A stretch of 42,159 nt of DNA, taken from positions 1 through 42,159 of the forward strand of contig CAMAVT010000003.1 of the NCBI GenBank assembly GCA_945861775.1. The letters run 5' to 3'. The number at the start of each line of letters is the position of its first letter. Position 1 is the stretch's first letter. The DNA comes from Bifidobacterium breve. Lineage in GTDB: Bacteria > Actinomycetota > Actinomycetes > S36-B12. Positions 15,163-38,447 of this stretch are shown here, piece after piece. Made by a program: the position numbers and the translations under genes. Below the pieces are notes generated by a model that was not told the origin of the DNA, did not search any database, and worked only from the letters and a program-made list of their open reading frames with translations.

Positions 15163-15357
15163 ATGATTTCAATCAATATTGATATGGACTCTTGCCAGAA
15201 CTACGGGCAGTGCGTATTTGAAGCTGAGGACATTTTTCAACTCGATGACGCCGGAAACATCCAATACACCAAGGAAGTCCCCGACGACCGTCTCGAAGAC
15301 GTTGAGAGCGCCGTTGACGTTTGCCCTATGCAGGCAATCAGCTTCACGACCACTTAA
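15163..15357 (+). CDS. Small [3Fe-4S]-type ferredoxin
   Basis: C-QNY-GQC...CP motif with the second Cys replaced by Tyr; AGGAG RBS. Confidence 0.88.
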   Translation: MISINIDMDSCQNYGQCVFEAEDIFQLDDAGNIQYTKEVPDDRLEDVESAVDVCPMQAISFTTT

Positions 15358-15382
15358 GGCTCGGGGCTTCACGCACATCCAA

Positions 15383-15412
15383 CACCCTATATTTAGAGCA
15401 CCCTATATTTAG
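15383..15412. repeat. 14-bp perfect direct repeat CACCCTATATTTAG x2 (16-bp period)
   Basis: Copies at 15383-15396 and 15399-15412, in the intergenic region before the AhpD-like gene. Confidence 0.85.
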
Positions 15413-15443
15413 TGGTTGAAAGCTAATTGGTTAAGGAGAAACA

Positions 15444-17637: not shown

Positions 17638-18207
17638 TTATTGACTGGCAAGGGTCCAGCGTTCCAGCAATCGTGAGTGCAGCTCTTCGACCTGTCGAGG
17701 TGTAATGCGATTTTGTGTCACGACGCGTCGGTAGAGAAACGGTGCGACAAGGTCCTCAACACACTGCGCAATATCAAGTCGAGCATCAATTAAACCTTCC
17801 TTTTGCGCGCCACGAATGATGGAAGCAGCGCGCGAACGAGTTTGTGAAAATGCTCGGCGGTGCACTTCAGCAAAGGCGTCGTCGCGCCAAGAGCCTTCAA
17901 TTAAAGCCACCAGCATCGCGGTATAGGTCGGGTCATTAAGTCGACGCGCGTAGTCGACAAGATAGTCGTGCAATCCCGTGCTTGGGTCTGCACCAAGGTT
18001 GAGTGGTTCTTGGTGCATCAACTCATCAAATGCCTCGCAGGCTAGTGCGGCCAAATCGGGCCAGTTGCGGTAGATCGTGCTTCGAGCGATACCCGATTCG
18101 GCAGCAATCCGATCGACAGTCAAACCAACTAGTCCTTCTGAAACCAAGACCTGGCTGACAGCTTGGTACACAATTGCTCGCGTACGCTCAAATCGTGCAT
18201 CGGTCAT
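17638..18207 (-). CDS. TetR/AcrR family regulator
   Basis: HTH GLTVDRIAAESGIARSTIYRNW. Confidence 0.92.
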   Translation of the reverse strand: MTDARFERTRAIVYQAVSQVLVSEGLVGLTVDRIAAESGIARSTIYRNWPDLAALACEAFDELMHQEPLNLGADPSTGLHDYLVDYARRLNDPTYTAMLVALIEGSWRDDAFAEVHRRAFSQTRSRAASIIRGAQKEGLIDARLDIAQCVEDLVAPFLYRRVVTQNRITPRQVEELHSRLLERWTLASQ

Positions 18208-19403
18208 GCGCAGGTAATCTCCGTCAGCTGCGAAAGAAATCGCAGGTGTACAGCTACCCCAATTGATAAATGATCCGTTGATCGACGCGGTCCTTGCTCA
18301 AACACCGATCGCGCACTCAAGTTCACACATGCACCTCGATAGTGATTGAACGCCAACCACTGCTCCCACTGTTGCGCTGTGTATTCAATTCCGGCAACTT
18401 TTGCCAAGCGGGCTTTCCATGAGTCTGCATCCATGATTCGTCGCCCTCTAATGAGTGCAAGATAAGCCCAATCTTCTGCCGCATCTCCAACGTGGGCAAA
18501 CTCCCAGTCGATTGTGGTTAACCCTCGCTCAGGATCAAATAATGCATTGCCGGGACCAGCATCACCGTGCACAATTACTGAAGGACCCGTGGGTTTCAAG
18601 TGCTCATGCAGCCACTCTGCTCCATGTTCAATCAACGGGGACTCAGGGGCGTACTTGCGGTACATGGTTCGCCAGTACTCAATGTTGTCGTGGACAACGC
18701 TCTCCGCACTTCGATTCGATGCATCGAGTACGCCAACGGTGACCTGGTGTAGTTCGGCAACGGAAGCAATGATGTCGTCAAGACCTTGGTCATCAAGTCG
18801 TACAACACCAGGAACCGCCTCCATGATGAAAAACGGTTGGCCTAAAACAACTCCACTTTCTTCGACCGCAAGGACTTCAGGAACGGCATGGCCAACCGCA
18901 TGGAGAGCATGCATTGCTTTCACCTCGGTGACGGTGTCGGTGCCAAACATCCCACCTTGTTCGATTCTCACGATAACGGATTTTGGGACACCGTCGATGA
19001 TCAGATTTACCCGCCACATGTGGCGCGAGAATCCGCCACCGATCACTTCTGCGTCCACGACGCTCACTTCTGCACCCCTTTGTTGGGCAAACCATGCAGC
19101 TACCGCACCAACTTCGGCCGGTGGGACAGGTACTACCGAATGTACGATGCTGGTGTCATGGCTGGTAAATGCACCCATCAAGGGTGCCGCTTCAACAACG
19201 TCACTTGCTAGCCATTCGTTAAGTTCTGTCACCGAAACTGCTTCAGAAGCAAGCCGCAATCGTCGCGATGGCCAAGGATCCTGGCCTCGGTTATTCACGT
19301 ATTCGGCGACCGCTGCCCACTGTGCGGCGGAGCCCAATGTGGAGTCTGATTCGCCATCTGTGATTGCCTGTCGAATGAGTGCTTCGTCGATCCAGTCCTG
19401 CAT
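18204..19403 (-). CDS. APH-family phosphotransferase (ACAD10/11- or LvaA-like) with an N-terminal extension
   Basis: GGGFSR, LG.PFFIME.VPG, HGDAGPGN, IDWEFAH.GD.AED. Confidence 0.85.
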   Translation of the reverse strand: MQDWIDEALIRQAITDGESDSTLGSAAQWAAVAEYVNNRGQDPWPSRRLRLASEAVSVTELNEWLASDVVEAAPLMGAFTSHDTSIVHSVVPVPPAEVGAVAAWFAQQRGAEVSVVDAEVIGGGFSRHMWRVNLIIDGVPKSVIVRIEQGGMFGTDTVTEVKAMHALHAVGHAVPEVLAVEESGVVLGQPFFIMEAVPGVVRLDDQGLDDIIASVAELHQVTVGVLDASNRSAESVVHDNIEYWRTMYRKYAPESPLIEHGAEWLHEHLKPTGPSVIVHGDAGPGNALFDPERGLTTIDWEFAHVGDAAEDWAYLALIRGRRIMDADSWKARLAKVAGIEYTAQQWEQWLAFNHYRGACVNLSARSVFEQGPRRSTDHLSIGVAVHLRFLSQLTEITCA

Positions 19404-20404
19404 CAGCGTCCTCGCACCGCATCCGCGATCTTTGCCTCAAGTGCAAAGTCGTAGCCGGCTCCCCACACTGGATCTGAGAGTTGATCCGGTGCGTCAACTA
19501 ACGGTGTTGTGCAGAACCAGTCGTAGGTTTGCATATATCCGTCACGGAATCCGCGCTCTGTTGTGAGGCCGAGTGATGCGGATTTGGCGACCGAAAGAAT
19601 GCCATGGTGCTTCACCCCGAAAAGGTGACCGTAAATGGGTTTTTCTTGGGTGAAGTCGGTCGGGAGAACAACAATGTCGGGTTCAACACCCACGATTTGC
19701 GCGAGGGTTTCGGTGAATGCCCGAGCTGATGCACCTTCACCGGTGATGTTAATGATTTCTCCGCGCACCGCAGGGAGCTCGGCCATCTCTAGCAAATTTC
19801 GGCATAGGTCATCGACGTGACCGTAACTCGTTGTGACCAGGCCTTCATGGGGCAGGAGCACGGGGAGCCCTCGGCGTAGCCGAAGAAACATTGCAGTCTC
19901 CATGTCGTGGATGTTGTTTTCCGGTCCGTAGATCGCGGCCGGTCGCGCAATTGAGCCAGGGAATCCCGTGCTCGCAAAGCGCCCGAGAATGGAACGCTCA
20001 GCATGTGCTTTGAATCCACCGTACGTGGTGATCGGGTCACTCGTTTGCGCCTTAGTTTCGGTCCACGGCATTACGCCGGTGGGTTCGTAGGCCATAATCG
20101 ATGAAACGAAAACATATGCTCCGACACTGCCATCGAGCATGGCGAGAAGTTCCTCGAACTCGCCACCGCCTGCGGCCATAACGAACCCGGAGACATCGAT
20201 CACCGCATCCCATTGGGTGCCGTCTAGGGCTGCTCGCATGGATTCCGTGCTCGTTCGGTCACCCACCAGCCGCTCGACACCGGGAGGCAGGTCACCTGAT
20301 GTCTTTCCACGATTTAAGACCGTGGTCTGATGCCCCTCCCGAATGAGTAAATCCACCATCCGGCGCCCGACAAAGGTGCCACCGCCCAAGACAAGAATTT
20401 TCAT
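19403..20404 (-). CDS. Extended SDR / NAD-dependent epimerase-dehydratase family protein
   Basis: MKILVLGGGTFVG, NRG, YGGFK, RPAAIYGP, HVDDL. ATG 20404 has a TAAGGT -10 at 20412-20417. Confidence 0.85.
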   Translation of the reverse strand: MKILVLGGGTFVGRRMVDLLIREGHQTTVLNRGKTSGDLPPGVERLVGDRTSTESMRAALDGTQWDAVIDVSGFVMAAGGGEFEELLAMLDGSVGAYVFVSSIMAYEPTGVMPWTETKAQTSDPITTYGGFKAHAERSILGRFASTGFPGSIARPAAIYGPENNIHDMETAMFLRLRRGLPVLLPHEGLVTTSYGHVDDLCRNLLEMAELPAVRGEIINITGEGASARAFTETLAQIVGVEPDIVVLPTDFTQEKPIYGHLFGVKHHGILSVAKSASLGLTTERGFRDGYMQTYDWFCTTPLVDAPDQLSDPVWGAGYDFALEAKIADAVRGR

Positions 20405-20464
20405 GCCCCCGACCTTACAGGACATTTTGTCTCACAGTCATTCGGTGTGCGATATCATCCCGTT

Positions 20465-21592
20465 ATGACAAATTCCGGCCCACTGACGAAGATGGATGAA
20501 TACCCGCGGCATCAGATTGGTGGCACCTTTGACAGTGTTCAAAGTGACTCGGTCCATTGGAATGATGGCTTCTACTTCACTCTAGGCGACGAAGCAACCG
20601 GTACGACTCTATTCGCTGCGATCCGGCTCTATCCCAACACCGACGTGATGGATGGCTTTGCCTGCGTGACTTTTGACGGGCGCCAGCACAACATGCGTGT
20701 CTCACGCCGCCTACGTCCGCGAATCGACGACATCAGTGTTGGGCCACTATCACTGACCATTATTGAACCACTCCAAACTTTGAAGTTGGAGTGCGTGGAC
20801 AACGAATATGGAATTACATTTGACCTTCTGTGGGAGGGTCTCCACCAGCCTTACCTTGAAGATCGAATTGTTCGCTATGCCGGTGGCCGCAAAGTTTATG
20901 ATCGCACGAACTTTGATCAATGCTGCTCAGTCACAGGGACGATTTCAGTAAAGGGTCACGCTTTCAACGTTAATGCCGACACGTGGGTTGGGGTTCGCGA
21001 CCATTCGTGGGGCATGGGCCGCACCGGTGGTGCCTCATCCAGTGCAATCGCTCCCGAGCATTCGCGCGACCCTCGCCGCGGATTCGCGATGCGCCAGTGG
21101 ACCATGGTGCGAATGCCTGATCGCGTTATGTTCTGGCAGTTTCACTTGCAAGCCGATGGAAGTTTTGATCCGTTGGAGGCTGTCGTGATTCCCTTAGATC
21201 CGAGTCAACCGCAATGGTCCTATGTGGATGCTGAAGCGAGCGCGGTGCGAGTTCAGGGGTTACCGCGCGCCGAAGCAACCCACGTGAACCTAACCCGTCC
21301 CGATGGAAGGGTTGATCGGTTCGAACTCACTTCGGTGAGTTCACCCGTGTACTTGCAAGGCGGTGGTTACCATGACGGTTTCACCGACCGACTGGGCCGC
21401 GGCGTGTTCCGGGGGGAAGATGTCCACGAAGGTGAAGTCTGGGATGTAACGCACCCAATCGACGTTGGCGATCCGGGCGGCTGGTTCCGACAACGGCCCG
21501 ATGCGTGGGCTGAACAATTTGCGACCTGCGTCAACCTTGACGACCCCACCGATCGTGGATTCGGTCACCTGGAATGCGTCCTGGCGCCATGA
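20465..21592 (+). CDS. Uncharacterised beta-rich protein (AttH/tocopherol-cyclase/lipocalin-like fold inferred)
   Basis: DEYP.HQ, W.D.FYF, YPN..V.D and RDHSWG motifs. ATG 20465 has a TATCAT -10 at 20453-20458. Confidence 0.65.
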   Translation: MTNSGPLTKMDEYPRHQIGGTFDSVQSDSVHWNDGFYFTLGDEATGTTLFAAIRLYPNTDVMDGFACVTFDGRQHNMRVSRRLRPRIDDISVGPLSLTIIEPLQTLKLECVDNEYGITFDLLWEGLHQPYLEDRIVRYAGGRKVYDRTNFDQCCSVTGTISVKGHAFNVNADTWVGVRDHSWGMGRTGGASSSAIAPEHSRDPRRGFAMRQWTMVRMPDRVMFWQFHLQADGSFDPLEAVVIPLDPSQPQWSYVDAEASAVRVQGLPRAEATHVNLTRPDGRVDRFELTSVSSPVYLQGGGYHDGFTDRLGRGVFRGEDVHEGEVWDVTHPIDVGDPGGWFRQRPDAWAEQFATCVNLDDPTDRGFGHLECVLAP

Positions 21593-22112: not shown

Positions 22113-22913
22113 TTAGGCTTCGATCGGGTAAAACTTCTGAGCTCGGTCCGAAAGGGTTTCTTTACCCGCATCGACGACGAGCACGGCACCGTTCATGAAC
22201 TCAGACTCGTCACTAGCCATGAAAAGTGCGGCATTAGCCATATCTTCGGGTTTTGGTGCCCGACCGCCAACATATTTTGAGGACAGCCGTTCATAGGCTC
22301 CTTCGAGATTGTCAGGGTCGCCGGTCACAACGCCAGCGGTCAGGGATGACAGCGTGGCACCCGGACACAGGGCGTTCACCCGGACCCGGTGCGGGGCGGC
22401 TTCTACCGCGACCGACTTCGTGAGTCCGATTACCCCGTGCTTTGCGGTGGTGTACGCGTGTGCGCCGAGACCTCCCTGGACGCCGGCAGTGCTCGAAATA
22501 TTAATGATTGATCCCGACCGCTGCTTCCGCATTATGGGGAATGCATGTTTGGTTCCTAGGAAAACCCCGGTCTGCAGAATCGCGATTGTGCGCTCCCAGT
22601 CAGCCAAGTCGGTTGACTCAATTGAACCGGTGACACCAACGACACCGGCGTTGTTGATCATTACGTCAAGTGAACCAAAGTTCGTGATGCAGGCGCTAAT
22701 CGCAGAGACGATGTCACTTTCACGTGTCACATCTGTTCGAATGAAGAGGACGGAGTCGCCCAGTTCAGCGACTAGTTTTTCTCCCGCCACGACATCAATG
22801 TCAGCGATGACGCATTGAGCGCCTTCGGCAACAAATCGTCGAACGATTCCTTCACCAATTCCACGTGCTCCGCCCGTGACAACAGCTGCTTTGCCAGCAA
22901 GTCGATTCATCAA
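22113..22913 (-). CDS. Classical SDR oxidoreductase (hydroxysteroid-dehydrogenase-like)
   Basis: TGGARGIG, ADID (NAD preference), NNAG, YTTAK, RVNALCPG. Confidence 0.9.
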   Translation of the reverse strand: MMNRLAGKAAVVTGGARGIGEGIVRRFVAEGAQCVIADIDVVAGEKLVAELGDSVLFIRTDVTRESDIVSAISACITNFGSLDVMINNAGVVGVTGSIESTDLADWERTIAILQTGVFLGTKHAFPIMRKQRSGSIINISSTAGVQGGLGAHAYTTAKHGVIGLTKSVAVEAAPHRVRVNALCPGATLSSLTAGVVTGDPDNLEGAYERLSSKYVGGRAPKPEDMANAALFMASDESEFMNGAVLVVDAGKETLSDRAQKFYPIEA

Positions 22914-23386
22914 TGGCCATCACTGAGGGTGAGACGTTGGAGCATGGTCAACGTTGACTCGTCTCGACCCACTGCGCCAGCCGCAATGATCTCTCGGGTT
23001 TTCATCTTCCAACCCTCAGGACTTTTGTACCAAGTGTCCACATATCGCCCATGCAGCGTCCATTCCTTACCTTGGGGATCGCGATGCCACGCCGTGACCA
23101 CACTCTCCGTGTTTGCACTGTCGGTACTTGTGAAAGTGATGGAGATGTTGGTCACCACATGGGATGTCTGCACATATCGCCGATACGCGCTCTCCCAGGC
23201 CGCACGCAATGCGTCATGACCTTCAAGCCAAACACCCCCACTGAAGTTCACCCGGCAATCAGGATGGAACACGGTTAATTGTGTTTCAATGTCAGCCATA
23301 TCAGCTGCTTTGGCGTATCGGAACATCAATTGTTCGATATCAAAGCGATCGGGGATTCGTAATCCATCCAGGCGGGCGCTGCTCAT
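22910..23386 (-). CDS. SnoaL_4/NTF2-like protein
   Basis: DR..IEQL..RYA.A.D, T.H.VTN, GRY.D.......GWK...R; GAAGGA RBS. Confidence 0.85.
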   Translation of the reverse strand: MSSARLDGLRIPDRFDIEQLMFRYAKAADMADIETQLTVFHPDCRVNFSGGVWLEGHDALRAAWESAYRRYVQTSHVVTNISITFTSTDSANTESVVTAWHRDPQGKEWTLHGRYVDTWYKSPEGWKMKTREIIAAGAVGRDESTLTMLQRLTLSDGH

Positions 23387-23416
23387 ATTTCCTTCTTTCA
23401 GTGGTTGAGTCGAGTT

Positions 23417-24256
23417 TTAGTCTGGGCGAACGGCGGTAAGGACCGAGTCCAAGCCCTCGGCGATTTGGCGGGCGGTGAGGAATGGATCCTGCGCCTTTAG
23501 TTCGGTTGAAATAACCTCAATGGAGAAAGTGGAATCTGCACGGTGCGCATTTCGTTCTCGGAAAAGTCCGACTAGGTCAAACTCCCCCAATCCTGGGATT
23601 CTTCGATTGCGCAGACAATCCTCGCGAAGATCTTCAGGGTATTCGCATACAAGTGTTCCATCGTTGATCTGAAGTGTTGAAATATATGGCCATAGGTCAT
23701 CAAGATGGGATAACGGTAAATCATTGCGATACAGGTGCCAGATATCTAGGCACATCGAGAGATTAGGTCGATCTGCTAAACGGATTATCGATGCAGCGTC
23801 TGCGGGGGTCTTCATATTTGTGAATGGCAATGGTTCCAGAACTACATCAACATTCCATTGCGCGAATCGGTCAGCCACCCGACCAGCTCGAAGGGCAGCC
23901 TGCGTCTCCGTTTCGCTGTAGGGCCCAACGGCCTGCAATCGATCTGGTCGCAAGTGCTCGGCCAGTAAGGCTGCAAGGTCTTCGAGCGGGTCAGTTTCCT
24001 CGCCCATAACGCGAATGGCCTCGAGTTCGGCAACACGCACACCGAACTGATCGAGTTTGTGATCCAGTTCAGCGAGGTCATAGGTTTGCAGCCACTGTTT
24101 CATCCAACGAACGCTGAGTCCAACATCGACGAAACCAGCATCGCGGGCTGCCTCGAAACGCGTTTCCATCGGTACTTCGGCAATACAGTTGAACGAGAAA
24201 GTGAAGTCGGCAACGACCGGGGCGCTAATCCGTGAACTAATTACCGGCGAGGTCAC
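23417..24256 (-). CDS. Sugar phosphate isomerase/epimerase (xylose-isomerase-like TIM barrel)
   Basis: Metal-ligand motifs LEPLPF, LDIWH, LQINDG, R..PG.GEFDL, IEVIS. GTG 24256 follows GAGGG. Confidence 0.82.
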   Translation of the reverse strand: MTSPVISSRISAPVVADFTFSFNCIAEVPMETRFEAARDAGFVDVGLSVRWMKQWLQTYDLAELDHKLDQFGVRVAELEAIRVMGEETDPLEDLAALLAEHLRPDRLQAVGPYSETETQAALRAGRVADRFAQWNVDVVLEPLPFTNMKTPADAASIIRLADRPNLSMCLDIWHLYRNDLPLSHLDDLWPYISTLQINDGTLVCEYPEDLREDCLRNRRIPGLGEFDLVGLFRERNAHRADSTFSIEVISTELKAQDPFLTARQIAEGLDSVLTAVRPD

Positions 24257-25391
24257 GAGCAATACCCTCGTCGATCAGTCTTTGAATTTGGTGGTGAAAG
24301 GCTGGGATTTTGCATTCGCGGTCGTTGAAGAGGTTTCTCTTATAAAAAGATGAACGCGAAGTCGCAGCAATGTCTTCCCACGTCCAAACATCCTCGCCAA
24401 CAACGATTTTCAGGTGGTCCCAGTGTCGCTGCGTGCGATCAAGGTAATCCTGATCATCAGTCTTGTACCAGAGGTCCCAGGTTTCAAAACGAGTCTTGTC
24501 ATGGGTAATGGGAACTGCGCGGAAAAGTTGCAGATGCTCGGGGTTGTTGTTGAACACCGATGTCGGGAAGATCGTGTAATGGCAGATTGCCACCGATTGG
24601 TGATCCTGCGTCTCTTGCAATTTTGACAGCGTTCCCTTCAATGGCACAACCATCATGGAATGTCGTTCGAACTCAAAAATGCGCATCTCACGACCATCTT
24701 TTACATCTTGCGGTGGAATATGGTGCAGTGCTTGCGCGTGATAAAACTCGTTGAATGCGTCGACGACTACTTTCCAGTTGACATCAACGTCCCATGTCAT
24801 TTTCTCATTAAGGTACATGTCTTCCATGTGGTACGCACCAAGGTCCGCGATGATGTCTTCGCCGAGGTACTCCATCAGTGGCGGTGCAACTCCGGGGCCA
24901 GCGAGCACACCCCACACCCAACCGGCCCATTCGGCAACTTCGATCTTGGGAGCTGCCAAGTCGCGAAGTTCTTCGGGGTCAAAATCTTCACTGTCGGGGA
25001 CACCGATTACCTTGCCGTCAAAGTCATAAGCCCAGCCATGCCATGCACACTTGAATCGACGTGCACACTCGCCCGATTCGCGCACGATGCGAGCACCTCG
25101 ATGCTGACACACATTATGAAAACCAGTTACCGAGCCGTCATTTTTACGGGTGATAACAACCGTCTCACCCTGTCCCTCCCAGACGACATGGTCGCCGGTG
25201 TTCACGAGTTCTTCGGACCTACAGAGAATTTGCCAGCTGTTGTTCAGAACGTATTTGCGCTCGAGTTCGAAGCGATACGGATCGGTGTACCAATCGGCGG
25301 GAATAGTCTCGGACTTTCCTGGAGTATTGGGGATCTCCGGTGCAAATCGAATTGGGGCATCACCGCGGGTGGGTGGGGTGAATATGGTCAT
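24237..25391 (-). CDS. Rieske non-heme iron oxygenase alpha subunit (1)
   Basis: NVCQHRG...CAWHGW; NWK...DAFNEFYH...LH; C-terminal GED iron ligand. Confidence 0.92.
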   Translation of the reverse strand: MTIFTPPTRGDAPIRFAPEIPNTPGKSETIPADWYTDPYRFELERKYVLNNSWQILCRSEELVNTGDHVVWEGQGETVVITRKNDGSVTGFHNVCQHRGARIVRESGECARRFKCAWHGWAYDFDGKVIGVPDSEDFDPEELRDLAAPKIEVAEWAGWVWGVLAGPGVAPPLMEYLGEDIIADLGAYHMEDMYLNEKMTWDVDVNWKVVVDAFNEFYHAQALHHIPPQDVKDGREMRIFEFERHSMMVVPLKGTLSKLQETQDHQSVAICHYTIFPTSVFNNNPEHLQLFRAVPITHDKTRFETWDLWYKTDDQDYLDRTQRHWDHLKIVVGEDVWTWEDIAATSRSSFYKRNLFNDRECKIPAFHHQIQRLIDEGIARDLAGN

Positions 25392-25423: not shown

Positions 25424-25457
25424 ACCCTACACTTGTCTAGACAACTTCCACAAGTGT
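25424..25457 (-). promoter_or_regulatory. Promoter of Rieske gene 1 with palindromic operator TTGTCTAGACAA
   Basis: -10 TAGGGT at 25424-25429, palindrome at 25433-25444, TTGTGG at 25448-25453. Additional inverted repeat ACACTTGT (25429-25436) / ACAAGTGT (25450-25457). Confidence 0.72.
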
Positions 25458-25486
25458 TTAAGGGAATCAACTTCTAGGAATTCGAG

Positions 25487-26443
25487 CTAAATATCGAGGA
25501 CCAGTCGGTCACCCTTGCAGCGTGAGACACAGGGCATCATGTAGACGCCTTCCTCACGATCCTCTTCCGAGAGGATCGAGTCCCGGTGGGCAATATCTCC
25601 CGAGATCACCTTGGTCTCGCACGTTCCGCAAACACCCTCGGTGCACGAGGTCATCACGGGAACTCCATTATCAATGAGTACCTCGACAATGCTCCGGTCG
25701 CGAGGAATCACAAACTCCGCTCCAGAACTGTTCAACACGACGGTGAATTCATGGTCACCCGAATCACCCGTGGTGTCGATCGGTTTAGCGGCAAAGCGTT
25801 CAACGTATGGAGTTGGCCGGCCAAGTCGTTCGCAGGCTTGTTCAACAGCTGAAATGAGTGGCTCGGGGCCACAGCAGTACACCGCGGTATCTGGTGCCGC
25901 TTTGCTTAAAATGTCATCGAGTGGCAGCAGTCCCTTTTCGTCTTGCGGCCATATAACAACACCGAGCGCTTCAAGGCGATCCCGAAAAGCCATTGAATTT
26001 CGGGTGCGGCCACCGTAATAAAACGTCCACGGCGCGTCTTTGTCGAAGATAACTTGGCCGAGCATCGGGACCATTGGTGTTACTCCAACACCACCTGCAA
26101 TGAAAAGATAGGAAGGCGCATCAACCAATGGGAAATGGTTTCGCGGTCCACGTGTGCGAACGTGGTCTCCAACATTGATGTTGTCATGGACAAATGAAGA
26201 TCCACCGCGACCATCAGGCTCACGCAGTACAGCAATCCGCCACGTGTCGGCGCCAAAATGACTACACAATGAATACTGACGTTCAATCCCGTTACCGAGT
26301 TGTACATCGATATGGGCACCGGGTTCCCAACTGGGAAGCTTCTCACCGCTAGGAGCGCCTACCCGGATGGAAACAACGCCATCGGCTTCTTCAACCCGCT
26401 CGATGACAACCAGATCTCGGTACTCCTCGTAAACATAAGACAT
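25487..26443 (-). CDS. PDR/VanB family FMN-[2Fe-2S] reductase
   Basis: W.PGAHID, RQYSL, GRGGS, AGGVGVTP, YCCGP, CTEGVCGTC...C. ATG 26443 has a TACCCT -10 at 26450-26455. Confidence 0.93.
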   Translation of the reverse strand: MSYVYEEYRDLVVIERVEEADGVVSIRVGAPSGEKLPSWEPGAHIDVQLGNGIERQYSLCSHFGADTWRIAVLREPDGRGGSSFVHDNINVGDHVRTRGPRNHFPLVDAPSYLFIAGGVGVTPMVPMLGQVIFDKDAPWTFYYGGRTRNSMAFRDRLEALGVVIWPQDEKGLLPLDDILSKAAPDTAVYCCGPEPLISAVEQACERLGRPTPYVERFAAKPIDTTGDSGDHEFTVVLNSSGAEFVIPRDRSIVEVLIDNGVPVMTSCTEGVCGTCETKVISGDIAHRDSILSEEDREEGVYMMPCVSRCKGDRLVLDI

Positions 26444-26521
26444 GCCTTCAGGGTATCGGAGCCCACGAACCACGCAACAATTACCACCGCACTGATGTTG
26501 CCGATATTTGTGCCAAGAAAC

Positions 26522-26563
26522 ACAACATCGCCTGCACTCGCAAAGGAGTGCAGGCGATGTTGT
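26522..26563 (-). terminator. Intrinsic terminator after the SDR
   Basis: 18-bp perfect stem ACAACATCGCCTGCACTC / GAGTGCAGGCGATGTTGT, followed by GTTTCTT on the minus strand, about 10 nt past the stop. Confidence 0.85.
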
Positions 26564-26573
26564 TAGTTAATTA

Positions 26574-27359
26574 CTAGAACGCGGCCGAACCACCGTCAAC
26601 GTTGTAGGTGGCGCCGGTCATGCCGTTACCCAATGGACCAGCGAGAAGAACCGCCATGCCGGCAACCTGCTCAACCGTTTGCAATTCCTTGGTGAGGCAA
26701 TCATTAGCGAAGTCCTCAAGGAATGCTTCGTAAGTGATGCCCGATGCTTCGGCAACCTGTGCACCTGCATCTTTCATCAGTTCCGTCTCAATTGGGCCAG
26801 GACAGATTGCGTTGCACGTGACACCACTTGTGCCGTACTCCACCGCGGTCGCCTTTGAGAGGCCGATCATGGCGTGCTTGCCGGCGATGTAGTGACTCAC
26901 GGCAACCTTTGAAGCGACCTTGCCTTCGATTGAAGCGATGTTGATGATCCGGCCGTAACCGGCAGGCAACATGTACTTCAGTGCGCGACGAGTGCCCCAA
27001 AATGCAGTGCTGGCATTCCACTCAAGACCCTTGAGCCATGCTTCGTCGCTGAGATCCCCAATAAGCGCCCAACCATCGGAGCCACCGGCGCAGTTGACCA
27101 TGATGTCAAGCTTTCCGAACTTCTCGACCGCATAGTCCACGAGTGCGTCGACTTCGGTACGCACGAGTGCATCACATTTTTTGAAGAGCGCGCGATCACC
27201 AGCCTTCAAGCGCTCCAACGCGTAGGCGCCCTTTTCTTCGGAGCGATTACCTAAAACAACGGATGCACCTTCAGCGATAAATGCTTCGGCGATTCCAAAT
27301 CCAATGCCGGTGCTTCCGGCGGTGATTACCGCTACGCGGCCTTCGAGACTGCCACCCAT
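26574..27359 (-). CDS. Classical SDR oxidoreductase
   Basis: TAGSTGIG, NCAGG, SIEGK, YIAGK, NAICPG; AGGAG RBS. Confidence 0.9.
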   Translation of the reverse strand: MGGSLEGRVAVITAGSTGIGFGIAEAFIAEGASVVLGNRSEEKGAYALERLKAGDRALFKKCDALVRTEVDALVDYAVEKFGKLDIMVNCAGGSDGWALIGDLSDEAWLKGLEWNASTAFWGTRRALKYMLPAGYGRIINIASIEGKVASKVAVSHYIAGKHAMIGLSKATAVEYGTSGVTCNAICPGPIETELMKDAGAQVAEASGITYEAFLEDFANDCLTKELQTVEQVAGMAVLLAGPLGNGMTGATYNVDGGSAAF

Positions 27360-27380
27360 GAATTTCTCCTGCTTCTCGCG

Positions 27381-27469
27381 GACAGCCGGACGGCTGTCAC
27401 TGTTTTATTCCCCAGTTATCGGGGTCTATCTCACACCACTTACAAGTGCCTGTCAACGCAACTGGGGAA
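27381..27469 (-). promoter_or_regulatory. Structured promoter/5' region of the SDR
   Basis: TTGACA at 27451-27456 (minus strand), CACTTACAAGTG dyad at 27437-27448, 10-bp inverted repeat at 27408-27417 / 27460-27469, and hairpin GACAGCCG/CGGCTGTC at 27381-27398. Confidence 0.45.
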
Positions 27470-27492
27470 GTCGAGATGTAACCGATATCTGA

Positions 27493-28797
27493 CTAATTGG
27501 TGATAACGCGGGGAAGAACAGCCTTACTCAGGTCGCCACCGTGAACCGCCTCGGCACCTTCATGCATGAGTCGGTTGATGGTCCGGTGAACGTATTGCAC
27601 GCCCGGTTCATTACGGCCAAAGATCTGGGTTTTACCGCCGGTTACGGCGACTCCTTTTTGAACCCCAAAGCCGGTGATGTAGTCCTCGTCGTAGGTGACG
27701 TCGTAGAACCAGTCGCGCATGACTGCAAGTTCATGCTGCTCGCGTTCATCATTTGTGATGGGTGTCCGAACCAAAATACGCTGCTCGGTGATTGACTCGG
27801 TCACCTTGGTTGTTGGCAATGGGAAAGCAACAGCCATCCGCTGACGCCATCCGCCAGCGATTGAGAAACCTGGGAACAGCCAGTTGATGGTTCCCACATT
27901 TGCAGTGGGATCCCACGTGTCTTCGGGGTCATCAAGGTGATTCTCAATTTCGCGCAACGCAAAGGCAACGCGCTCGTGCGCACCGTGGCCATCAAAGGTT
28001 GCGGTGTTGCTGAGATTTGTTTTGAAGACCGTGTCTTTGTGAAGCGCAGCGAAATGATAACCCTCTAGATAGCCTTCGATCGCAACTTTCCAGTTGGGAC
28101 CGGGCATCATGCGGGTAGAAAACAGATGACAATCGGCAAGTTTGAGGCTCTCCAAAATAGGAGCGAAGTCGCCGAGCCAAGAGTCGATATCAATTTCGAG
28201 TTCGGGGGTCAGGCACACAAAAATTACACCGTGTTTTTCAACACAGGGAAGTTTGATCATGTTGCGCTCGGACTTGTCAAAGTCACCGAAAGTACTCTCC
28301 CCGTAAAGCCCTTTAAGTTGACCGTCCATGCCATAACTCCAGTTGTGATAAGGACAGGTAAGCGCTCGCGAGGTTCCTAGACCAGCCGAACAAATCAATG
28401 CGCCGCGGTGGCGACATACGTTGAGCATTGCATGGACTTGACCCTGTGAATCCCGGGTAATAACAACAGGAACACCCACGACCTCGATAGCTTTGTGATC
28501 ATTCTTTTCTGGCAATTCACATGAGAGTGCCAGCGGAAGCGGGATCCGCTTGAAAATCAACTCGATCTCACTTGCGAAGAGTTCTTCATCCAGGTAATTC
28601 TCAACGGGCTCTTGGAAAGTGGCTTCGGCTTGATCGGTTGTCTTGTTCTTTGTGTGGGCAATCAGTCGAGCCATCATGGCCAACGCATCCTCGCGCGCTG
28701 CCCCATCAAGGATCTTGCTGGGGAGATAAGCGGGAGTGGAGCCTTGCGTCTCTACAACCTGCGTCTCAACAACTTCGGTCTCAATAATCTGGGTCAT
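27493..28797 (-). CDS. Rieske non-heme iron oxygenase alpha subunit (2)
   Basis: NVCRHRG...CPYHNW; NWK...EGYLEGYH...LH; DED ligand region; AAGGAG RBS. Confidence 0.92.
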   Translation of the reverse strand: MTQIIETEVVETQVVETQGSTPAYLPSKILDGAAREDALAMMARLIAHTKNKTTDQAEATFQEPVENYLDEELFASEIELIFKRIPLPLALSCELPEKNDHKAIEVVGVPVVITRDSQGQVHAMLNVCRHRGALICSAGLGTSRALTCPYHNWSYGMDGQLKGLYGESTFGDFDKSERNMIKLPCVEKHGVIFVCLTPELEIDIDSWLGDFAPILESLKLADCHLFSTRMMPGPNWKVAIEGYLEGYHFAALHKDTVFKTNLSNTATFDGHGAHERVAFALREIENHLDDPEDTWDPTANVGTINWLFPGFSIAGGWRQRMAVAFPLPTTKVTESITEQRILVRTPITNDEREQHELAVMRDWFYDVTYDEDYITGFGVQKGVAVTGGKTQIFGRNEPGVQYVHRTINRLMHEGAEAVHGGDLSKAVLPRVITN

Positions 28798-28824
28798 GGG
28801 GGCTCCTTAGCAGCGACTGAGGCG

Positions 28825-28847
28825 AGTGTATCAACTTGTCTAGACAA
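28825..28847 (-). promoter_or_regulatory. Promoter of Rieske gene 2 with a second TTGTCTAGACAA operator
   Basis: -10 TACACT at 28825-28830 and palindrome at 28836-28847. The 14 nt ACTTGTCTAGACAA are identical to the site at 25431. Confidence 0.75.
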
Positions 28848-28850
28848 ATA

Positions 28851-32356: not shown

Positions 32357-33085
32357 ATGGGTGAAGTTCCACTGTATGAGCGCGTGCGCCAGTCAATTGC
32401 GCAAACACTCACCGATGGCACACTCTCCCCCGGCGACAAACTTCCCAGTGAGGCACGGCTGGCCGAGGAATTCGGTGTCAACCGGCTTACCGTCCGGCGA
32501 GCAATTGAGGAACTTGCCCGAGCCGGCGCGGTGGAGTCTCGACAGGGTTCCGGCACATTTGTGAGCGCCAGGATTATCCGGCTTCCGCTATCCCAGCAAC
32601 TCTCCACGGACTCACTTGTTTCCCGGCTTACCAGCCAGATCGCCGAACAGGGTCTCACCTATGAAGACATCCTTCTGCGGGCCGTTAAATTGAAAAGCTC
32701 GCATCTGAATACGACCCTCGAACTGCCTTTGGGTCCGCTGTGGCGGGTAGACAATGCGTTGGTGGTTAATGGCGCTACCTGGATGTGGTCGAGTTCGTGG
32801 TTCCCTCGAGAACTGCTCACAGATCCCGCTGGAAACTGGGACCAGGTCACCGGCCTGTACGGCCAACTCAATGCAGCACTGGGTGAACCACGTCCGGTCT
32901 GGCGGGCAATCTCCGCGGACGCCGCAACCCTTGTTGACGCAGAGATCCTCGGCATTCGAGCCAGCTCGCCCGTGCTCGTGCGCGACGGTCTCACCGCGGG
33001 AGAAAACGGTGAGCCGATGCTTCGGGTATCGCGCCGGGCGCGCATGGACCGGGTGAGCTACGTACTGCGCTACGACCAGGATTGA
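32357..33085 (+). CDS. GntR family regulator, HutC/UTRA subfamily
   Basis: PLY....., PGDKLPSE..LA.EFGVNRLTVRRA..EL...G......G.GTFV, followed by a UTRA-like C-terminal domain. TAGCGT -10 at 32345-32350. Confidence 0.9.
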   Translation: MGEVPLYERVRQSIAQTLTDGTLSPGDKLPSEARLAEEFGVNRLTVRRAIEELARAGAVESRQGSGTFVSARIIRLPLSQQLSTDSLVSRLTSQIAEQGLTYEDILLRAVKLKSSHLNTTLELPLGPLWRVDNALVVNGATWMWSSSWFPRELLTDPAGNWDQVTGLYGQLNAALGEPRPVWRAISADAATLVDAEILGIRASSPVLVRDGLTAGENGEPMLRVSRRARMDRVSYVLRYDQD

Positions 33086-33100
33086 CCAAGATTGATCGAG

Positions 33101-34525
33101 TTATCGGGCCATCCACTCGTCTAAAATTTGGTGATAGTGCCGAATCCGATTCTCTTGGTACCGCGTAAGCCGCACGCCTGGTCCGCGCATTGACTTCAAA
33201 CCTTCTTGGATGAATGGCATGTTGGCCATATCTTGGTCAAAGACCGGTCCGAGTAATCCGATTTCCGTGATGTCAGAGAAAGTCTCCCCCGGCTTTAGCC
33301 AACGTGGCTCTGCGGGCTTGGGGTGTGAACCGTCAGCCGGCTTTTGTGCCAGTAAAAATACTTCCGCAAGGCACTTGTCCGGGTCGTTGCCGTGCGGGCG
33401 GAAACGGTACACGGCGTTGGTCCGGGGTCCGGCGAAAACATAGAAGTTGGGGAATACGAAGTACTGAATTCCATCTAAGAGTTCTGAATCTGTCCAATGA
33501 TCCTGTTCGCTGCCGAACTGTGCTGCAAGGGAGGTGCGCATTGCGGCGGCAAGTTCGCGACGGGCGGTTGAGTCCAAAGGAACACGTGGCGTGCCTTCAT
33601 CTCCCACAGCCAAGTCGCGACCTTTACCCTGCGTGTAAAAAGCGCGCGTTTCATAGTAGGAGTCCAGTACTTCTTGTTCACTGATGTGGTTTGCGATCGT
33701 TGGGCTGGGCACCCCCTGCGGCACAATCTGGCGACTCCAGTTCTCGCCTTTGATCACGTCGTACTGGGTGTTTTCATCGCCGAGCCATTCCATCATTTGT
33801 GGGTGCGTGGCCAACGAGTGGAAGCCTTCAATGAATGCTTCGCCCGCGACTTTCCAGTTGCAATCGATGACGCCACCGAAGTGCGAATACACGACCCGGT
33901 CTTCGTAATTCCAACGATCCCAGTCGTTGAGCATGGAACCCATGAAACTCTCAAGTGGTTCAGCATCAGGATCTTGGTTGATGAAAACAAAACCGTTCCA
34001 CACGGCAACCTTGGCTTCGGGCAACGGGAGGTTCGTGGGATCTATTTCTGGGAAGTCCCAAGCGCACGGGAGATTCTTGAGGGTGCCATCAATATTCCAA
34101 CTGAAGCCGTGGAATGGGCAGCGCAGTTCACTTACCCGCCCACCTTCTTGGCGCAGTGCCCGACCACGATGCAGGCATACGTTGTAGAGCGCCTTAATGC
34201 TGCCGTCGGGTTGGCGCATAATGATGAGTTTGTCGTCAACGATGTCGTAGGTGATGTGATCGCCAGCATTGGGGATGTGATCCTCGCGGCACACAAATTG
34301 CCATACCTTACGCCACACTTTGTCGACTTCACGATCATGGAATTCGCGAGAAATATACCGATCAATATCCATGGGGGCAGTCCCGAGATCCTCATTAATG
34401 TCGTATCTAAGTGCCGCCGGGACTGGACGTGAGTCTTCATCGAGATATGACTGAACACTGGTCCCCGGGGATCGCGGGCTTGGTGGCTCAGTTGATTCAC
34501 GCTGGGGAGATGCGAGTTCGGTCAT
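33101..34525 (-). CDS. Rieske non-heme iron oxygenase alpha subunit (3, long type)
   Basis: NVCLHRG...CPFHGF; NWKVA.EAFIEGFH...TH; DQD..NM; YQE.RIRH.H; AAGGAG RBS. Confidence 0.92.
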   Translation of the reverse strand: MTELASPQRESTEPPSPRSPGTSVQSYLDEDSRPVPAALRYDINEDLGTAPMDIDRYISREFHDREVDKVWRKVWQFVCREDHIPNAGDHITYDIVDDKLIIMRQPDGSIKALYNVCLHRGRALRQEGGRVSELRCPFHGFSWNIDGTLKNLPCAWDFPEIDPTNLPLPEAKVAVWNGFVFINQDPDAEPLESFMGSMLNDWDRWNYEDRVVYSHFGGVIDCNWKVAGEAFIEGFHSLATHPQMMEWLGDENTQYDVIKGENWSRQIVPQGVPSPTIANHISEQEVLDSYYETRAFYTQGKGRDLAVGDEGTPRVPLDSTARRELAAAMRTSLAAQFGSEQDHWTDSELLDGIQYFVFPNFYVFAGPRTNAVYRFRPHGNDPDKCLAEVFLLAQKPADGSHPKPAEPRWLKPGETFSDITEIGLLGPVFDQDMANMPFIQEGLKSMRGPGVRLTRYQENRIRHYHQILDEWMAR

Positions 34526-34557: not shown

Positions 34558-34586
34558 ATTATGTCCCCGATGTTATAGGACGTCAA
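34558..34586 (-). promoter_or_regulatory. Sigma70-type promoter of Rieske gene 3
   Basis: TTGACG (34581-34586) - 17 nt - CATAAT (34558-34563), overlapped by the imperfect inverted repeat ATGTCC-N11-GGACGT. Confidence 0.7.
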
Positions 34587-34605
34587 ATAAAGATGCTTAC
34601 CCAAC

Positions 34606-37364: not shown

Positions 37365-38447
37365 CTACCCCTGGCAGCTCTTGACCCGGAAGAGATTGTC
37401 GATTTGCGCACCACCGTGCGCTCGGCTGCAACGGAGTCGGGGTATCCAACCGCGGTGCTTGAACTCGAAAAATCAGAGACTGGTCTAGACCTTGCGTTGT
37501 GGTCACTGCTCGCGCAGGACATCGGGCTCTCTGCGGTCGGGCTACCTGAGTCTGCCGGCGGCTTGGGCGGCCTTGCCGAAATTCTTGCGGTGGCAGAAGA
37601 ACTAGGTGCCACGTTGGCGCCCGTTCCCTTTATTACCAGCACTGTTCTGTGCGGCCAAGTCTTGGCTGCAAGTGATGAAAGTTCAACTCCATATCTTGAG
37701 CGAATTGCGGCAGGTGAGATTGCGGCTCCCGCCTTTACCAATGCGCGCGGCCAATGGTCTGCGGGTGACATTTCATGTACGAGTGATGGTGAAAAAGTTT
37801 CGGGAACGGTCCGATTCGCGCCATTTGGTGCCAGTGCAACATTCTTTGTGGTTGCAGCCCGCACAGATTCAGGCATTGATGTATTTGTTGTTGAGGCTTC
37901 CGATGCGAACGTCAGCGCGTTGCCATCACTAGATTTCTCGCGGCCATCGGCAACCGTCACTTTCGATAGTTCCCCAGCAGTGCGACTGACGACCGGTGGA
38001 AATGGCGAGAGTGTAATCTCACACGCCGTTGACATAACACTGATGGCTGTTGCCGCTGATCAACTTGGCGGATCGCAGGCCTGTTTTGATATGACACTTG
38101 ACTATATAAAGGTGCGCCGCCAATTTAATCGGGAGATCGGTAGCTTCCAAGCCATCAAACACCGGATGACCGATGCCCTGATGCTCGTTGAAATGCTGCG
38201 ATCTGGGCTGGAAAAGGTGACATCGGGTGGCACGCAGGATCTTGCCGCGGATGCAGCGATGAATAAGTCCTGGGGGTCTGATTCTTACATTGCGATGACC
38301 GCCGAAGCAATTCAATTGCACGGTGGTATCGGTTTCACGTGGGAACACACCACGCACCTGTATTTCAGAAGGGCGCGCTACGACGCTGCGTTTCTCGGCG
38401 ATGGTTCATTTCAGCGCGAGCGCCTCGCCAAAGTGCTGAACTGGTAA
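37335..38447 (+). CDS. Acyl-CoA dehydrogenase-like subunit (non-catalytic FadE27/28-type)
   Basis: R.QF.R.IGSFQAIKH, IQLHGGIGFTWEH..HLYFRRA. ATG 37335 follows GGAG. Confidence 0.85.
   Translation: MSFESAMSFELPLAALDPEEIVDLRTTVRSAATESGYPTAVLELEKSETGLDLALWSLLAQDIGLSAVGLPESAGGLGGLAEILAVAEELGATLAPVPFITSTVLCGQVLAASDESSTPYLERIAAGEIAAPAFTNARGQWSAGDISCTSDGEKVSGTVRFAPFGASATFFVVAARTDSGIDVFVVEASDANVSALPSLDFSRPSATVTFDSSPAVRLTTGGNGESVISHAVDITLMAVAADQLGGSQACFDMTLDYIKVRRQFNREIGSFQAIKHRMTDALMLVEMLRSGLEKVTSGGTQDLAADAAMNKSWGSDSYIAMTAEAIQLHGGIGFTWEHTTHLYFRRARYDAAFLGDGSFQRERLAKVLNW

Follow-up and report, generated by a model that had tools for sequence, protein, structure and literature searches.

Within the GntR family of transcription regulators, the operators of the HutC subfamily are described by the consensus NyGTMTAKACNy (PMC4494728, section 5). 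PhnF is described as the repressor of a phosphonate operon that is released by its effector (PMC11494704). For NagR, PMC4333415 gives contacts from Arg38 to G-5, from Arg48 to G-4 and from Gly69 of the wing to G-7, and places the G-7 mainly in half-sites that lack G-5; this source and PMC4494728 relate an arginine at position 28 of the helix-turn-helix (HTH) to a G at position -5. In PMC4494728 (sections 5 and 9, part 1), the palindrome TTGTCTAGACAA is listed 32 times on the HutC sheet; the regulators of the 15 rows examined are all HutC, PhnF or TreR proteins with a residue other than arginine at that position. Here we describe sites of this kind in a stretch of 42,159 nucleotides (nt) of contig CAMAVT010000003.1 (assembly GCA_945861775.1), hereafter the window, in which the same palindrome precedes two genes for Rieske oxygenase (RO) alpha subunits, RO1 and RO2, and a gene for a GntR-UTRA protein of the HutC subfamily lies at 32357-33085 on the plus strand.

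A sequence-only reading of the window had proposed that an identical palindrome in two Rieske promoters marks a candidate HutC/GntR regulon, and our analysis supports that proposal. The 14-nt sequence ACTTGTCTAGACAA is found at 25431-25444 and 28834-28847; within it lies the 12-bp palindrome TTGTCTAGACAA (25433-25444 and 28836-28847), with AC directly before each copy on the plus strand. Across orthologous upstream regions two further bases are conserved on either flank of the 12-mer, and the full site is a 16-bp palindrome with the consensus AGTTGTCTAGACAACT and the 12-mer as its core. Operator 1 (25431-25446) agrees with this consensus at 15 of 16 positions and operator 2 (28834-28849) at 14 of 16, neither being assigned a strand. 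Both are intergenic, 41 nt (RO1) and 38 nt (RO2) before the minus-strand start codons; operator 2 lies 1 nt past the stop codon of a His-phosphatase gene. Both contain the GTCTAGAC core with 4 nt between GT and AC, which conforms to the published HutC-type form, as the earlier identification of a GT-N-TA-N-AC core had it. We consider it very probable that the palindrome is the core of a conserved operator in two predicted Rieske promoters and that its binder is the adjacent GntR-UTRA protein, which would repress both promoters until a metabolite releases it. So understood, this is an ordinary local two-site regulon of the HutC type, with an operator sequence that published lists already give for PhnF, HutC and TreR.

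Because repeated 12-bp palindromes are not rare in the assembly, recurrence alone is weak evidence, and the case for an operator therefore stands on position and conservation. For footprinting, the gene cluster was taken from genomes that carry the surrounding genomic island at known places, and about 130 nt upstream of each gene were scored, excluding genes whose alignment starts after residue 30, whose identity is below 50% or that have less than 100 nt upstream. With up to two mismatches allowed, the site stands upstream of all 37 RO1 orthologues (protein identity down to 66%) and of 48 of the 52 RO2 orthologues (down to 50%), and the remaining four RO2 copies have recognisable variants with 3-4 mismatches in the same place. 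By the same measure, the regions upstream of 25 other cluster genes, 304 in all, contain none. Among these genes, the third Rieske alpha gene RO3 (0/33), the short-chain dehydrogenase/reductase (SDR) gene (0/36) and the reductase gene (0/37) have true gaps in the window. Mean column conservation within the 16-mer is 0.93 and 0.89 at the two genes, versus 0.44-0.53 in the flanks, and metagenome loci are consistent with the footprint.

A scan of the 2,255,127-bp assembly finds exactly two copies of TTGTCTAGACAA (25433 and 28836) and none with one mismatch, where Markov models of order 1-5 give an expectation of 0.03-0.07 per genome; a shuffle figure (mean 1.17) permits two mismatches and is no test of exact copies. 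Of the checks that the sequence-only reading had suggested, the comparison of orthologues came out in favor of an operator. Within the training range, a matrix scan of the assembly adds a single third site to the two operators, at C2:44889 (matrix score 16.7); it falls within a HigB-like coding sequence of a toxin-antitoxin pair, and we rejected it. On inspection, we also set aside a terminator or hairpin reading of the 12-mer, whose stem is 4 bp and which is followed by no U tract. The GTCTAGAC core also appears at 37483-37490 of the window within an acyl-CoA dehydrogenase coding sequence; it is not seen in the mapped relatives and we take it as chance. Paired GTATATAC/GTCTAGAC-like boxes at an unrelated promoter (C61:1980-2012 of the window genome, G000, and L108:1480-1515) possibly belong to another GntR regulon.

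An orthologue of the GntR-UTRA gene or of RO2 was found in 46 of 173 genomes of the family, and, among 212 genomes sampled from other families of the same order, RO2 was found in 1. The pattern TTGTMTAKACAA is found in 37 of the 46 island-bearing genomes versus 4 of the 127 others of the family, a distribution for which we give no p-value because related genomes are not independent. Single exact copies in genomes G009, G013, G019 and G076 lie at unrelated loci and were excluded from the regulon. In a genome of another family (G358), whose GntR is 43% identical, sites stand before RO1, both RO2 copies and an RO2 paralogue, and weaker candidates lie near two more genes. RO2 is duplicated in tandem in many relatives (L238, L240, L244, L249, L252, L258, L270, L271, L318), each copy with its own operator variant; the site thus accompanies the duplicates, its offset to the promoter varying while the overlap is kept. 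The RO2 paralogue on contig C26 of the window genome has no upstream site (the best match has 6 mismatches in 16), whereas relatives have one. In six loci (L278, L279, L280, L282, L283, L292) exact sites also stand ahead of an alpha/beta hydrolase, an RO2 paralogue, an OYE flavoenzyme and a cytochrome P450, which suggests a larger regulon in those relatives. Exact sites near a sugar-binding-protein operon in L281 and L284 could belong to a different HutC-type regulator.

The positions of the sites relative to the predicted promoters are those a repressor would occupy. On the minus strand, the hexamers TAGGGT (25429-25424) and TACACT (28830-28825) lie 3 nt past site 1 and 5 nt past site 2, the spacing of 3-5 nt that had been noted before. 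For RO1, the predicted -10 (25424-25429, minus strand) belongs to a TAnnnT that follows the 12-mer by 2-4 nt in 37/37 loci, and the predicted -35 (TTGTGG, 25448-25453, minus strand, 18-nt spacer) to a TTG-starting hexamer found 16-18 nt 5' of the -10 in 34 of 37. Since these elements follow and precede the site at conserved distances, operator 1 is read as filling the spacer of the predicted RO1 promoter. RO2 has two layouts. In 15 of the 52 loci, the window included, the site lies 5 nt ahead of an extended -10 of the form TGn-TAnnnT (predicted in the window as TG-A-TACACT, 28825-28833, minus strand); in another 26 it shares bases with a CATAGT-like -10 whose -35 begins with TTG (mostly TTGACA), so that the site would lie over the transcription start; 11 match neither rule. 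A consensus promoter scan at its threshold reported neither the RO1 nor the RO2 promoter (5 promoters found versus 8.1 expected in shuffles), and the predicted promoters therefore rest on conservation. Because the site moves around the core promoter while always overlapping the predicted promoter, the arrangement suggests steric repression.

The protein encoded at 32357 is of the subfamily that had been named for it. It has an N-terminal GntR winged HTH (PF00392, E 1.5e-22, 79.4 bits versus a cut-off of 27) and a C-terminal UTRA domain of the chorismate-lyase fold (PF07702, 28.8 bits versus 23.8), the latter divergent (Pfam E 1e-6). Its structure model has a pLDDT of 87.8 and finds YvoA/NagR, DasR and PhnF as top Foldseek matches, and its orthologous group is a narrow one, with 16 clusters at E up to 1e-30. 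In a pairwise alignment, Arg38, Arg48 and Gly69 of NagR correspond to Ala33, Arg43 and Gly64. Among 120 homologues, position 33 is Ala, Ser or Thr and never Arg (0/120), while Arg43 and Gly64 are invariant. The half-site AGTTGTCT has G-7, T-5 and G-4, as expected from those residues; the missing G-5 arginine fits because the base at -5 is T. The relation between HTH arginine and G-5 therefore holds across the group, with no arginine in 120/120 and T or C at -5. Three Pseudomonas PhnF proteins among the rows listing TTGTCTAGACAA read VNRHT[LI]RRA where our protein reads VNRLTVRRA, and other PhnF rows of PMC4494728 give TCGTCTAGAC and ACATCTAGAC sites, which resemble variants in the present loci.

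On these grounds, we propose that a dimer of the GntR-UTRA protein would place one winged helix on each half-site, with Arg43 reading G-4 and Gly64 of the wing contacting G-7. The bound dimer would cover the -35/-10 spacer at site 1 and, at site 2, the bases just upstream of the extended -10, and sigma-A polymerase would be blocked at both promoters. A metabolite of the pathway would then release the protein from both operators.

Several observations weigh against this proposal. About 100 of 515 distinct perfect 12-bp palindromes recur in the assembly, so recurrence is not rare, and on contig C1 the members of two other palindrome pairs lie within 2 kb of one another. Most of the 304 control regions are intra-operon, which makes the control lenient, and the assembly, at 85% completeness, may lack additional sites or regulators. 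No exact TTGTMTAKACAA is present in eight genomes that have the GntR gene; several of them have variants with up to two mismatches in the fetched RO upstream regions, which cover part of the eight. The PhnF and HutC sites of PMC4494728 are comparative-genomic predictions. In the window, the best match to the site in the GntR gene's own promoter has 5 mismatches, and the site is absent from this promoter in 26 of 39 GntR loci. In the other 13 it stands 2-4 nt before the -10; these loci form one clade (support 91/97; frameshifted loci L256 and L257 were left out of the GntR tree) and hence count as one event. Given a GntR promoter with no site, the regulator is likely not autoregulated in the window lineage. 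Finally, the GntR gene, the site and the Rieske genes travel as one island, and co-occurrence alone does not discriminate between GntR and a TetR protein encoded at 17638 or a MarR protein.

The sequence-only reading had noted the lack of a site in the GntR promoter and had cautioned that the binding protein could be encoded elsewhere. The lack is confirmed, and the caution has lost much of its force: the cluster GntR is the sole UTRA match in G005, G016, G164 and G165 (four of eight genomes checked), the second UTRA regulator of the window genome (contig C54) is present in only 2 of the 46 island-bearing genomes, and there are the 13 loci with a site in the GntR promoter. What is left of it concerns TetR and MarR proteins. 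TetR proteins also bind palindromes, and the site might be a real operator of the TetR encoded at 17638-18207 or of a MarR further along the same island, whose distribution cannot be separated from that of GntR and which the many site-free GntR promoters would suit. We regard this as unlikely, given that the one clade does have the site in its GntR promoter, that the site is found in 0/10 upstream regions, mostly of close relatives, of the TetR, APH, epimerase and Rv3169-like genes, and that the GT-CTAG-AC core with its 4-nt spacing is the HutC signature, the exact 12-mer being listed in PMC4494728 for HutC, PhnF and TreR. It is slightly harder still to read the element as a site for an activator, as a conserved piece of the promoter itself, or as something left behind when a Rieske gene was duplicated together with its promoter. 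Both sites do stand ahead of homologous genes and the RO2 duplicates carry copies, but RO1 and RO2 share only about 26-32% identity, the two sites are set in different flanking DNA, RO3 has no site, and from one lineage to another the site shifts out of the spacer and into the -10/+1 region with its symmetry kept, which suits occlusion over activation.

Two further explanations leave the palindrome to another protein of the HutC type. In one, to which we give very little weight, the cluster GntR binds a different element, motif B (AGWWTCTTTA-N9-CAGTA), at the flanking SnoaL-operon and RO3 promoters; there are HutC-subfamily proteins that recognise direct repeats (PMC4494728, section 5), and in most relatives motif B is present at RO3 and at the SnoaL promoter in GntR's divergent gap, as well as at one more island promoter. 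In the window, a decayed copy (34574-34597, minus strand) lies over the RO3 -35 box; it is intact in L238, L258, L261 and others. Motif B occurs in 35 of the 173 genomes and is absent from the window genus (G000 and 0/21 others), and because six genomes of that genus keep GntR without an intact motif B, the main rival target of GntR is removed. The HTH contact positions are unchanged in the 120 homologues, and the four island genomes named above have no second UTRA match to which the palindrome could belong. Motif B instead tracks an island TetR (L297:4156-4824), present in 36 of 173 genomes, none of them in the window genus, and shared by 32 of the 35 motif B genomes; resting on one loss event, this link is only a lead. 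The other explanation, that the binder is the C54 regulator or a global DasR-like one, we find barely credible. The palindrome resembles a dre box, and the HTH of the C54 regulator also lacks the G-5 arginine. This regulator occurs in 11 of 173 genomes, of which two bear the island and the other nine lack TTGTMTAKACAA, and the matrix scan of the assembly showed no set of further sites beyond the toxin-antitoxin one; the idea is thus largely refuted already.

With the GntR-UTRA protein as the preferred binder, the regulon in the window is predicted to comprise two units, RO1-TIM barrel-SnoaL-SDR and RO2-SDR. The minus-strand order is SnoaL, Tyr-type phosphatase, aldehyde dehydrogenase, His-phosphatase, site 2, RO2, SDR, a terminator-like hairpin, reductase, site 1, RO1, TIM barrel, SnoaL and SDR. 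RO1 (24237-25391, minus strand, 384 residues, PF00355 and PF00848) would be the first gene of the unit under operator 1, and the xylose-isomerase-like TIM barrel, SnoaL-like and SDR genes (22113-24262, minus strand) are likely co-transcribed with it, to judge by overlapping or abutting open reading frames (ORFs), Pfam matches and synteny. RO2 (27493-28797, minus strand, 434 residues) would head the unit under operator 2, followed by an SDR identified by Pfam (26574-27359, minus strand) and, 3' of it, the strong hairpin of 18 pairs (26522-26563, minus strand), the likely end of the RO2-SDR transcript. RO2 has Rieske and Ring_hydroxyl_A domains, and both proteins, as the earlier annotation as Rieske alpha subunits implies, retain the Rieske motif CxH...CxxH and the iron motif E/D-xx-H-xxxx-H intact. 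The FMN/NAD/[2Fe-2S] reductase (25487-26473, minus strand) is likely the electron donor of the oxygenases. The GntR-UTRA gene, with its PhnF-like HTH, is likely leaderless; it is divergent from the SnoaL gene and convergent with RO3 (33101-34525, minus strand), and RO3, having no operator upstream, is predicted to lie outside the regulon in this family.

Neighboring genes have features of their own. Between the SDR and reductase genes, most relatives have a gene for a 582-residue swivel-His protein (PEP-utiliser; L261:2545-4293), which is missing from the window gap at 26473-26574, where the hairpin stands instead. The region 17638-21592 encodes a TetR, a phosphotransferase, an epimerase and an Rv3169-family protein, an arrangement that we take to recall Rv3167c-Rv3169 of mycobacteria, the Rv3169 family match being the one part tested. 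A small ferredoxin-like ORF of less than 90 residues lies at 15164-15358 (plus strand), and a direct repeat of CACCCTATATTTAG at about 15385-15415 precedes the next gene.

The block is part of a larger island, about 90 kb in a relative where it lies on a single contig, and in the window genome its parts lie on contigs C3, C173, C26, C65 and C34. Most titled records with close orthologues bear the label Actinomycetota, Actinomycetes or Candidatus Nanopelagicales, and several have lake-type names. The island encodes several proteins with a C-terminal swivel-His domain, which match the C-terminal part of rifampin phosphotransferase from residue 275 on, as well as a PPDK-like protein, phosphatases, KstD-like flavoproteins, a ChsH2/thiolase pair and acyl-CoA dehydrogenases. 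On C173, C26, C65 and C34, and in L295-L297, we also observed a 2-oxoacid dehydrogenase E1/E2 set, an ABC transporter, the PPDK-like protein, a fourth Rieske alpha gene, an OYE, an F420-dependent LLM protein, KstD-like flavoproteins and a fused B12-dependent acyl-CoA mutase. GntR proteins of the window genus group among those of another genus and the island is present in only 7 of its 22 genomes, where it may have been acquired by transfer (the root of the tree was not tested).

As to the substrate, the matches of RO1-RO3 in the Protein Data Bank (PDB), NCBIfam and the Atlas are all generic. None of the named Rieske families considered (GbcA, HcaE, BenA, AntA, KshA) claims the oxygenases, whose best NCBIfam scores are 94-129 bits versus cut-offs of 670-830, and the best PDB matches (E about 1e-22 to 1e-25) cover mostly the N-terminal half. 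His- and Tyr-type phosphatase genes lie beside the Rieske genes, and CreHI and HpeHI are described as two-component kinases that start phenolic catabolism (PMC12167813). We tentatively suggest, at somewhat less than even chances, a phenolic or alicyclic compound that would be phosphorylated, oxidised by the Rieske enzymes and then dephosphorylated; a steroid- or terpenoid-like substrate is a close rival. The swivel-His gene between SDR and reductase (29 fetched loci) speaks against phosphorylation, as it has no orthologue in the window assembly (best match 38%); five related swivel-His genes remain there, two of them orthologues of other island copies.

The UTRA domain offers some indication of the effector. 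The phosphate-binding Arg133 and Arg135 of NagR align to Asn133 and Leu135 and five tryptophans (W129, W142, W144, W161 and W182) never vary, which hints at a hydrophobic ligand; since identity in the alignment is about 25% and five other arginines never vary either, a phosphate site may still be present. We regard the substrate of the oxygenases, or a first product of theirs, as the likely effector; it would probably be aromatic or alicyclic and possibly phosphorylated. More speculatively, and with doubt outweighing belief, a PhnF-type DNA-binding head joined to a rewired, tryptophan-rich UTRA pocket may sense an aromatic or aryl-phosphate intermediate and gate the oxygenase step of an undescribed phosphorylate-oxidise-dephosphorylate pathway on this island in aquatic actinobacteria. 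If so, the regulator would be a ready biosensor for an organic compound that these bacteria consume.

The switch itself is ordinary; its worth lies in the access it gives to an uncharacterised island that has at least four Rieske oxygenases and is carried by 46 of 173 genomes of an actinobacterial family. With the operator defined to 16 bp and a likely regulator identified, screening ligands against one small soluble protein could reveal the substrate with no need to culture the host. The operator would also mark genes that act together, namely RO1, RO2 and their duplicates, and not RO3 or the reductase. We found no paper on this regulon in the open-access literature, where those mentioning the 12-mer were judged by title or abstract and most subscription papers and RegPrecise lay outside the scope. 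Within the same literature, we likewise found no paper that links the operator of a UTRA/GntR repressor with Rieske genes, or that describes a Rieske genomic island with a phosphotransferase in freshwater Actinobacteria.

Of the described systems, PhnF is the closest by sequence. It is the best NCBIfam match of the GntR-UTRA protein (TIGR02325), its recognition helix and wing are nearly identical, and supplement 1 of PMC4494728 predicts the identical 12-mer TTGTCTAGACAA as the site of Pseudomonas PhnF, with similar degenerate variants for other PhnF proteins. However, our protein scores 117.7 bits versus a cut-off of 156.8, its UTRA domain is divergent, and it stands among genes for Rieske oxygenases, SDRs and phosphatases, a scan of 31 window ORFs showing no phn gene; neither the curated score nor a phn or C-P lyase context places it in PhnF. 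NagR (YvoA) of Bacillus subtilis and DasR of Streptomyces, with its dre sites, share the two-domain fold (Foldseek E 1e-20), the 16-bp palindrome with a GT-N4-AC core and the equivalents of Arg48 and Gly69, which are invariant in our group. They differ in being only about 25% identical, in having the Arg38 that is absent here, where T stands at -5, and in that the present regulon is local rather than global; Ala33, Asn133 and Leu135, together with two sites in the assembly and no genome-wide dre set, set the protein apart from both. For HutC of Burkholderia and Agrobacterium and for staphylococcal TreR, the predicted site is the same TTGTCTAGACAA (PMC4494728), whereas our protein scores 79 versus a cut-off of 220 for HutC and 52 versus 212 for TreR, and no histidine or trehalose genes lie nearby. 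MoyR (Rv0792c) of Mycobacterium tuberculosis is likewise an actinobacterial GntR/HutC regulator beside monooxygenase-like genes (bioRxiv 10.1101/2025.08.21.671446); it binds its own divergent promoter and accompanies another gene set, and its model gives our protein 50.8 versus a cut-off of 400. Lastly, among the cre, hpe and acv pathways (CreHI, HpeHI, AcvAB), in which phenolics are first phosphorylated and then modified, HpeH has the swivel-His layout of the island proteins (PMC12167813). In contrast to these pathways, oxidation in the island would fall to Rieske enzymes, and the swivel-His copy between SDR and reductase is missing from the window genome.

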